Source: Escherichia coli (GTDB lineage Bacteria; Pseudomonadota; Gammaproteobacteria; Enterobacterales; Enterobacteriaceae). Taken from it: a stretch of 64,000 nt of DNA. Location: assembly GCF_013122565.1 (NCBI RefSeq), contig NZ_CP053258.1. One strand, given 5' to 3'. Each line of letters starts with the position of its first letter. Positions within the stretch are counted from its first letter, which is position 1. Below the pieces are notes generated by a model. That model saw only the letters and a program-made list of their open reading frames with translations. It did no database searches and was not told the origin of the DNA. Positions 1,650-29,429 of the stretch are shown here, piece after piece. A program made the translations under genes and the position numbers.

Positions 1650-1737
1650 GGAAGTGTGGCCGAGCGGTTGAAGGCACCGGTCTTGAAAACCGGCGACCCG
1701 AAAGGGTTCCAGAGTTCGAATCTCTGCGCTTCCGCCA
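1650..1737 (+). tRNA. serT: tRNA-Ser (anticodon UGA), 88 nt with long variable arm
   Basis: GGAAGTGTGGCCGAGCGG...GGTTCCAGAGTTCGAATCTCTGCGCTTCCGCCA; anticodon loop CTTGAAA; T-loop GTTCGAATC. Confidence 0.95.
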
Positions 1738-27597: not shown

Positions 27598-28608
27598 TTA
27601 GATATGGGTAACGATTTCTTTAATCAGCGGCGGACCTTTAAAAATAAAACCAGAATAAATTTGCACCAGTGAGGCACCCGCAGCAATCTTTTCACGCGCA
27701 GCGATAACCGAGTCGATGCCGCCAACACCGATGATCGGTAAGCGACCGTTTAATTCCAGTGACAAGCGGCGAATAATTTCGGTGCTTTTTAACTGAAGCG
27801 GACGACCACTTAAGCCACCGGTTTGATCGCAATTTTTCATTCCCTGAACGAGGGAACGATCGAGTGTGGTATTGGTTGCAATAACGCCATCAATATTATG
27901 GCGAACTAAACTATCGGCAACCTGGATCAATTCTTCTTCAGAAAGATCCGGCGCGATCTTCACTGCGATCGGCACATATTTATGGTGCATCGCTTGCAAA
28001 TCATTTTGCTTATTTTTAATCGCGGTTAAGAGATCATCCAGCGCTTCACCATATTGCAGAGTGCGTAATCCTGGGGTATTCGGCGATGAAATATTGATGG
28101 CGATATATCCCGCATAGGCATAGATTTTTTCCATACAAATCAGATAGTCATCTTTGCCCTGCTCCACTGGCGTATCTTTATTTTTGCCGATATTAATACC
28201 CAGGACGCCGTCATAATGGGCCTTTTTTACGTTCTCTACGAGGTTATCAACGCCAAGATTATTAAAGCCCATACGGTTGATCAAACCTTCGGCATCTACC
28301 AGACGAAAGAGACGGGGCTTGTCATTACCTGGCTGTGGACGTGGCGTGACGGTACCGATCTCGATCGATCCAAATCCCATCGCGCCTAACGCGTCAATGC
28401 ACTCCCCGTCTTTATCAAGACCGGCTGCCAGACCAAGCGGATTTTTAAACGTCAGGCCCATGCAGTTAACAGGTTTCGCAGGCACTTTCTGCCGCACCAG
28501 TGCTTCAAACGGCGTTCCGGTAATGCGGCGTAATTGCTGAAAAGTAAACTCATGAGCGCGCTCTGGATCGAGCTGGAAAAGGGCTTTACGAACGAAGGGG
28601 TAGTACAT
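27598..28608 (-). CDS. pyrD: Dihydroorotate dehydrogenase (quinone) PyrD, 336 aa
   Basis: ORF 27598..28635 trimmed to [21 protein letters not shown]; ATG confirmed 28606-28608. Confidence 0.95.
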
Positions 28609-28694
28609 GAACTCTCCTGGATTCCCGGTGTGCAAACCGGGGGCGTATTATGTGCGAGTTCGGACCAAAAGGGAATTGACCTGCGGCAAAAAAA

Positions 28695-28708
28695 ACGCAA
28701 ACGTTTTC
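28695..28708. promoter_or_regulatory. PurR-box-like operator upstream of pyrD
   Basis: ACGCAAACGTTTTC matches the purine repressor operator core (ACGCAAACGTTT...); about 90 nt upstream of the pyrD ATG. Confidence 0.6.
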
Positions 28709-28718
28709 CGAACCTGTT

Positions 28719-29429
28719 TCAGGGCAGATTTTGCTCCTTCTTTGCACTCAACCCGCCGTAATCATTTATCGCCCGCCAGGCGACATGACACGGTGCGATT
28801 GCCTGACACCAGCTTGTCTGACGCTGGCTTTTAGGCGGCACAACTCCCGCATTACTAAACGCTTTACCATTTACGCTCACCTGAATCAGGTTAATGTAGT
28901 AAGGCGTTGGGTTAGTGAGTTGTACACCCTGCGAATTCCGTGTCCAGCGTAATTGTTGATAAGCTTCCAGCGGGTCGCCCGGCAAACCTTCGGGTCGCCA
29001 GAACAGTTTAAATACCGAGCGCATCGCCACTTTTACGCTCTGATTTTCAACTTTGCCGGATGGCACGCTGGCAATGCTTAACTCAAATAGCGTTTCGCGA
29101 TCCACAGGCAAGATGTCGCTTTCCGTTCTCAGCAAGCGCAACGTGCCTGTAGTACCGGGCTTCAGGAGAATAAGTGGCGGAGCGGCCAGTAATGGTGCTG
29201 GCACTGTCGACGCTTCACCCCCGGCCCAACGCGTTGGTCGATTGATTTTACTGTTAATAAGCCAGGATTCCTGACTGGTATTAGTCAGTAAAATAGATAT
29301 TGATTCTCTGTCTGCCGGAAAGATAAATCGCGTTCCGCCGACCACCACTCCTGCCTGCAATTCACCCGCCACCAGCAGCGATAAAACGGCGAAAATCAAG
29401 AGCGCCAATCTGTTCCACGTATTAGTCAT
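28719..29429 (-). CDS. ycbF: Periplasmic pilus chaperone (PapD-like) YcbF, about 236 aa
   Basis: ORF 28719..29456; start set at MTNTWNRLALLIFAVLSLL (ATG 29427-29429); chaperone-like sequence. Confidence 0.8.
   Translation of the reverse strand: MTNTWNRLALLIFAVLSLLVAGELQAGVVVGGTRFIFPADRESISILLTNTSQESWLINSKINRPTRWAGGEASTVPAPLLAAPPLILLKPGTTGTLRLLRTESDILPVDRETLFELSIASVPSGKVENQSVKVAMRSVFKLFWRPEGLPGDPLEAYQQLRWTRNSQGVQLTNPTPYYINLIQVSVNGKAFSNAGVVPPKSQRQTSWCQAIAPCHVAWRAINDYGGLSAKKEQNLP

Follow-up and report, generated by a model that had tools for sequence, protein, structure and literature searches.

The interval 28609-28718, which is the entire ycbF-pyrD intergenic spacer and lies between two minus-strand genes, is with high confidence the native Escherichia coli pyrD promoter-leader region, in which three controls are stacked: PurR, FNR, and a leader hairpin whose formation depends on the transcription start site. 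According to this reading, PurR with its purine corepressor would bind the PUR box upstream of the core promoter and repress modestly, while FNR would bind TTGCCGCAGGTCAA, overlapping the -35 region, and activate transcription anaerobically. With CTP high relative to GTP, RNA polymerase would start at C28641 or C28640, and the resulting transcript, carrying the complete CCCGGU arm, would form a G+C-rich hairpin of 5-6 bp that impedes ribosome binding; with CTP low, the start would be at G28638, the outer C-G pairs would be missing, the hairpin would be unstable and pyrD would be translated. A first-pass annotation had proposed combined control of pyrD by PurR and by leader structure, which coincides with the published regulation (PMC3159470, PMC6245113, PMC6524683, PMC7818426), the sequence being identical to that of K-12. 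That interpretation is therefore upheld, but the overlap of the 5' arm with the start sites, which is the essential feature, was merely hinted at in it. The K-12 identity, the motifs, the graded stability, the fixed geometry, the conservation and covariation, and the Rfam membership come from the present analysis; for the occupancy of the sites by PurR and FNR, the shift of the start and the effect on translation, we rely on the literature. The region has already been described and curated, and nothing in it is new for E. coli.

In a 601-nt alignment (28400-29000) with K-12 MG1655 (NC_000913.3), every base of the spacer (28718..28609) was the same. The six substitutions found, at 28519, 28525, 28849, 28857, 28875 and 28899, all fall in pyrD or ycbF coding sequence. 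The identity of the spacer places the window (the whole stretch of 64,000 nt that was analysed) on the E. coli chromosome, in reverse orientation to the K-12 map. Of 5,426 complete E. coli genomes, 5,425 contain the spacer DNA, the genes annotated at the locus being ycbF and pyrD. Identity to the best complete E. coli genomes is 99.5% over 28400-29000, which points to a strain other than K-12 itself. The sole other Rfam/ARAGORN match in the 64 kb is a tRNA-Ser (anticodon UGA) at 1650-1737 (+), which we take to be serT of the K-12 map and which would fit a K-12-like chromosome in reversed orientation. The features of the spacer and its flanks are compiled in Table 1. No intrinsic terminator was detected on the minus strand between the ycbF stop codon and the pyrD promoter (28609-28719); read-through transcripts from the ycb/elf fimbrial operon would include the whole hairpin and should be translated poorly.

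Table 1. Features of the ycbF-pyrD region, with coordinates in the window.
Feature	Position	Strand	Remarks
ycbF (fimbrial chaperone gene)	stop codon at 28719	minus	upstream of pyrD
PurR operator (PUR box) CGGAAAACGTTTGCGT	28710..28695	minus	full 16 bp; centre 61.5 nt upstream of C28641
FNR-type site TTGCCGCAGGTCAA	28689..28676	minus	between PurR box and -10; centred 41.5 nt upstream of C28641
-35 hexamer TTCCCT (weak, inferred)	28670..28675	minus	17 bp from -10; in a block invariant among 81 Enterobacteriaceae sequences
-10 hexamer CATAAT	28647..28652	minus	NATAAT in all close relatives
Alternative start region CCCGG	28637..28641	minus	positions 6-10 after the -10 hexamer
Leader hairpin	28641..28624	minus	5' arm CCCGGU 28641-28636, loop UUGCAC 28635-28630, 3' arm ACCGGG 28629-28624
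Shine-Dalgarno AGGAG	28614..28618	minus	5 nt after the stem, 5 nt before ATG; invariant in relatives
Rfam RF02373 PyrD_leader match	28603..28676	minus	full-length; ends in the pyrD start codon region
pyrD CDS (quinone-dependent dihydroorotate dehydrogenase)	27598..28608, ATG 28608	minus	ORF and RefSeq annotation of matching E. coli loci

The PurR-operator-like 14-mer reported earlier, ACGCAAACGTTTTC, is indeed found on the plus strand at 28695-28708, the complete 16-mer extending over 28695-28710. This PUR box, CGGAAAACGTTTGCGT, matches the 16-bp consensus ACGNAAACGTTTGCNT of the PurR regulon operators and is identical to the pyrD PurR motif in the ChIP-chip Table 1 of Cho et al. 2011 (PMC3159470), who found pyrD to be directly repressed by PurR, with a ChIP-chip peak carrying this exact motif. 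For scoring, a PurR matrix was built from the 27 ChIP-chip sites of that study, leave-one-out (pyrD omitted). The 27 known sites span 12.0-24.7 bits. The pyrD box, at 20.8 bits, falls inside this range and was the top site in the 64 kb, the runners-up being the same box on the other strand (11.4 bits) and then a score of 10.9 bits; 20.8 bits was attained in 2 of 200 simulated windows. About 145 of the 151 distinct relatives retain the box, its orientation unchanged and its flanks diverging. Measured to the start of the -10 hexamer, it falls into two spacing classes, of 48-51 and 57-61 nt; the two positions differ by 10 bp, or one helical turn, with constant orientation. The proximal position was seen in E. 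coli, Citrobacter and Salmonella, and the distal one in Enterobacter, Klebsiella and Kosakonia. The same 16-bp palindromic motif is common to the operators of the pur regulon (e.g. purF, purT and purHD); 44% of those lie between -35 and -10 (PMC3159470), whereas the pyrD box is upstream of the core promoter and adjoins the FNR site. Repression of pyrC and pyrD by PurR has been credited to Choi & Zalkin 1990 and Wilson & Turnbough 1990 (PMC6245113), the effect at pyrD being far weaker than at the pur genes and comparable to the 3-4-fold effect at carAB P1 (PMC6245113).

Could the PurR-like sequence be a functionless chance match? A search with the strict palindromic consensus, allowing up to 3 mismatches, would on its own leave room for this, as it returned 1 match against 0.64 expected per window, which is not significant, and the PurR enrichment reported at pyrD is modest (1.01 with adenine only; PMC3159470). 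Against it stand the score, the highest in the window, the conservation of the box amid diverging flanks, and the published reports of PurR binding and repression at pyrD (PMC3159470, PMC6245113), which together exclude a chance match for practical purposes.

An FNR-type dyad, part of a strongly conserved block that separates the PUR box from the -10 hexamer, was overlooked in the first-pass annotation of 28609-28718, which had correctly picked out the PurR box and the hairpin in the same interval. Compared with the FNR consensus TTGAT-N4-ATCAA, the half-sites of TTGCCGCAGGTCAA match at 3/5 and 4/5 positions. Its ends, TTG and GTCAA, are invariant across relatives and its centre is variable; the TTG-N7-TCAA dyad was present in 142 of 151 distinct relatives and centred at 41.5 in all of these (142/142), the distance being counted from the sixth base after the -10 hexamer (C28641). 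Judged from the sequence, this geometry is that of a class II activator position, near -41.5, as in the class II FNR promoters of pykA, dmsA and focA, which likewise carry a TTG-N7-TCAA dyad about 41.5 nt upstream of the start. The pykA site, TTGAAGCGGGTCAA, is very similar to that of pyrD (PMC1802558); the left half-site of pyrD is poor, TTGCC versus TTGAT. Published data list pyrD among the directly FNR-activated operons, a single site at -38.5 and a ChIP-seq peak being recorded for it (Myers 2013, PMC3688515), and also as an FNR ChIP-chip target (Grainger 2007, PMC1802558); its net anaerobic expression is given as unchanged ('o' in Table 1 of Myers 2013, PMC3688515). The value of -38.5 implies a reference start at 28644, unlike the C28641 used here. 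Taken together with the position of the dyad, these reports suggest that TTGCCGCAGGTCAA is the 14-mer actually bound by FNR. Among divergent metagenome leaders, L100, L189, L194, L202, L132 and L166 are devoid of the TTG-N7-TCAA dyad; the -10 hexamer, the stem at position 6 and the Shine-Dalgarno geometry are preserved in them. A good PurR box is absent from L132 and L166, and is retained at 12.8-17.5 bits in L100, L189, L194 and L202.

A sigma-70 consensus scan of 28400-29000 called no promoter. We attribute this not to absence of a promoter but to its -35 hexamer, TTCCCT, which is poor, consistent with a promoter that is assisted by an activator. Following the -10 hexamer, the pyrD strand reads ACGCC CCCGGU UUGCAC ACCGGG AAUCC AGGAG AGUUC AUG, and relatives conserve, at the offset of the start sites, CCC or UCC and then a purine. 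Within the C run, only C6-C8 are conserved, so that the upstream part of the 'CCCCC' pointed out in the earlier annotation is not required; CTP-dependent reiterative transcription on the run of five C residues was dropped on the same ground. Resemblance to a RutR half-site (GGTCAA) was considered and likewise dropped. The alternative start sites of pyrD are as reviewed in PMC6524683; the direct pyrD experiments were made in Salmonella, and the start sites used here are thus derived from reviews (PMC6524683, PMC7818426). A Salmonella enterica representative has an identical leader, from the -10 hexamer through ATG.

The hairpin-forming sequence described earlier, CCCCCGGTTTGCACACCGGG, lies on the minus (pyrD-coding) strand at 28643..28624, its pairing part being CCCGGT/ACCGGG, and the stem ends 15 nt ahead of the ATG, in agreement with the claim that it shortly precedes the start codon. 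The predicted folding energy is -10.3 to -10.7 kcal/mol, with a 6-nt loop. The 5' end of the stem is exactly six nt after the -10 hexamer CATAAT, and the 5' arm thus coincides with the alternative starts (C at 6-8, G at 9), so that the choice of start sets the stability of the stem. Folding of the leader from each alternative start, the check proposed with the original claim, gave -10.3 kcal/mol for C28641, -7.2 for C28640, -3.9 for C28639, -1.9 for G28638 and 0 for G28637. This gradation is exactly what the published CTP/GTP start-switch model requires. In that model, drawn up for pyrC and pyrD, a high CTP/GTP ratio leads to a C start 6-7 nt after the Pribnow box, and the transcript, with two additional C residues, can form a stable 5' hairpin that blocks ribosomes, while at a low ratio the start is at G and the mRNA is translated (PMC6524683, PMC7818426); these reviews cite Frick 1990, Sorensen 1993, Wilson 1992 and Turnbough & Switzer 2008 for the model, and Sorensen et al. 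1993 for the shift of the start with the CTP/GTP ratio in vivo.

Against shuffled sequences, the fold of the leader was not significant (z -1.3 to -1.7), and we therefore relied on comparative evidence. A search with the Rfam models identified RF02373 (PyrD_leader) directly upstream of pyrD and on the same strand, with E = 1.2e-17 and a score of 97.9 bits, where the gathering threshold is 47; the alignment covers all 74 model positions (1-74), and the consensus structure of the family falls exactly on the twelve stem bases. Matches to RmaA and SNORA57 were weak and far under their thresholds. In addition, a scan with PyrD of one genome per species yielded 80 Enterobacteriaceae loci. Among them, hardly any variation is seen over the 36 nt that run from stem to ATG, and substitutions and indels in the hairpin are confined to the loop; the promoter spacer (15 nt) varies freely, as do the five bases preceding the stem. 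As these loci are too similar, and invariant pairs are uninformative on structure, divergent leaders were added from a DNA-pattern scan of metagenomes on the N-terminal codons of pyrD, the two sets together giving 35 distinct leaders. One metagenome sequence, L110, was left out as unrelated: this pyrD homologue has a wholly different, A+T-rich leader with neither the hairpin nor AGGAG, and the mechanism is accordingly not universal among pyrD genes with this N-terminus.

Standard pairs make up 95.1% of cells in the MAFFT alignment of these leaders, and shifting the 3' partners by a single column lowers this to 51-53%. Changes on both sides were recorded for 2 of the 6 pairs (G-C to A-U and G-C to C-G), and none of 500 shuffles attained the observed covariation score; the covariation rests on a handful of divergent metagenome sequences without taxonomic assignment, and partly on gap placement. 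MAFFT placed gaps within the 3' arm for L085, L108, L112, L118 and L194 and misaligned L157, so that the pair counts are conservative and the U-G wobbles reported are alignment artefacts. The compensatory stems, each checked by folding the leader alone, are CCCAGU/ACUGGG (L199), CCCGAU/AUCGGG (L132 and L166), CCCCC/GGGGG (L129) and UCCGGU/ACCGGA (L085 and L118). L199 has A in place of G as the purine of start position 9. The geometry is fixed: in 25 of the 35 minimum-energy folds the stem starts at position 6 after the -10 hexamer, the remaining 10 showing mostly the same core stem plus extra outer pairs, and in 30 of the 35 leaders it ends 5-6 nt ahead of GGAG, while loops range from 3 to 9 nt with pairing kept. 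From these alignments, the stem is maintained by selection through compensatory change. Conservation, compensatory changes and the 97.9-bit Rfam match show that the hairpin is not due to chance.

With respect to translation, the earlier annotation held that the hairpin can occlude the ribosome binding region. The stem indeed lies close to the Shine-Dalgarno sequence, with its end 5 nt upstream, but the two do not base-pair: stem-Shine-Dalgarno pairing was absent from every predicted pyrD leader fold. The predicted accessibility of the Shine-Dalgarno sequence was 0.25-0.30 whichever start was used, with or without the stem, and a translational block is therefore not derivable from thermodynamic folding. 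Given the lack of pairing, any block at pyrD must be steric, exerted by a stable stem 5 nt from the Shine-Dalgarno sequence and inside the region contacted by the 30S subunit. That occlusion occurs, and is hence steric, is a conclusion which we draw from published experiments and not from the fold; the hairpin is stated to block ribosome binding in two reviews (PMC6524683, PMC7818426).

Three other readings of the hairpin have to be weighed. The arms make up a perfect palindrome of 6 bp, placed shortly after the -10 hexamer, a frequent repressor position, and might represent a DNA operator for a dimeric protein instead of an RNA hairpin; the symmetric changes recorded among relatives could equally preserve a DNA palindrome. 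A fixed dimer, however, would not tolerate arm spacings of 3 to 9 nt, and the offset of the 5' arm from the -10 hexamer is fixed (position 6). The element is moreover matched by a curated Rfam family of RNAs, and published genetics assigns the effect to mRNA structure (PMC6524683, PMC7818426), so that we regard a DNA operator as very improbable. Still less credence can be given to a transcription attenuator or terminator in the leader. A G+C-rich stem-loop would suit such a function, and a simple scan flags the repeat as terminator-like on the plus strand, but GGGAAUCCAGGAG (GGGAAUCCAGG), the sequence after the stem on the pyrD strand, has no U tract, which excludes a terminator, and the minus-strand scan gave none. 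The plus-strand call (28622-28643) is the mirror image of the pyrD hairpin, antisense to the leader, and no independent feature.

It could also be argued that the hairpin serves mainly as a 5'-terminal stabiliser of the mRNA against 5'-end-dependent decay, with no block of translation, as the stem lies at the extreme 5' end of C-started transcripts and is not paired with the Shine-Dalgarno sequence. Stem-loops at the 5' end do stabilise E. coli mRNAs. A stabiliser, however, predicts higher expression at high CTP, which is the opposite of the reported regulation (PMC6524683, PMC7818426), and this possibility is accordingly given very little weight. The start-site-dependent hairpin that impedes ribosome binding is thus the preferred reading.

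With regard to known leaders, the element does not differ from the E. coli-Salmonella pyrD leader of Frick et al. 1990 and Sorensen et al. 1993 (Rfam RF02373), with which it shares the same 6-bp stem. The E. coli pyrC promoter-leader (Wilson et al. 1992) shares with it the PUR box, CCGG starts placed 5 nt after the -10 hexamer, and a G+C-rich hairpin in the leader, with a 5' arm made up of the start-site nucleotides. The two differ in two respects: (i) the pyrC PUR box, AGGAAAACGTTTCCGC, abuts the -10 hexamer, whereas that of pyrD is about 61.5 nt upstream of the start, and (ii) the 3' arm of pyrC, GCCGGAG, contains the Shine-Dalgarno sequence, whereas the pyrD stem stops 5 nt before it. The pyrD region has an FNR site in addition.

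The arrangement of the two upstream sites raises a further point. The PUR box is 5 bp upstream of the FNR dyad and centred at -61.5, and the C-terminal domain of the RNA polymerase alpha subunit normally docks near -61.5. Such a position would be compatible with PurR disturbing upstream polymerase or FNR contacts, and its displacement by one helical turn farther upstream in other Enterobacteriaceae suggests a helix-face constraint. PurR could then be an anti-activator at a class II FNR-dependent pyrD promoter and not a blocker of the core promoter, a proposal that we consider rather unlikely and put forward tentatively. No description of a PurR-FNR interplay at pyrD was found in the literature surveyed, the primary pyrD papers lying outside it. 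If anti-activation were true, the purine signal would matter mainly in anaerobic, FNR-active conditions.

Overall, pyrD represents a classic case of 'repression without a repressor', in which nucleotide pools pick the start site and hence determine the translatability of the mRNA, and this nucleotide-pool control is layered on control by PurR and FNR. To this picture, the comparative data bring a modest confirmation, with a stem under selection, a fixed offset from the -10 hexamer, and two helically phased positions of the PurR box.
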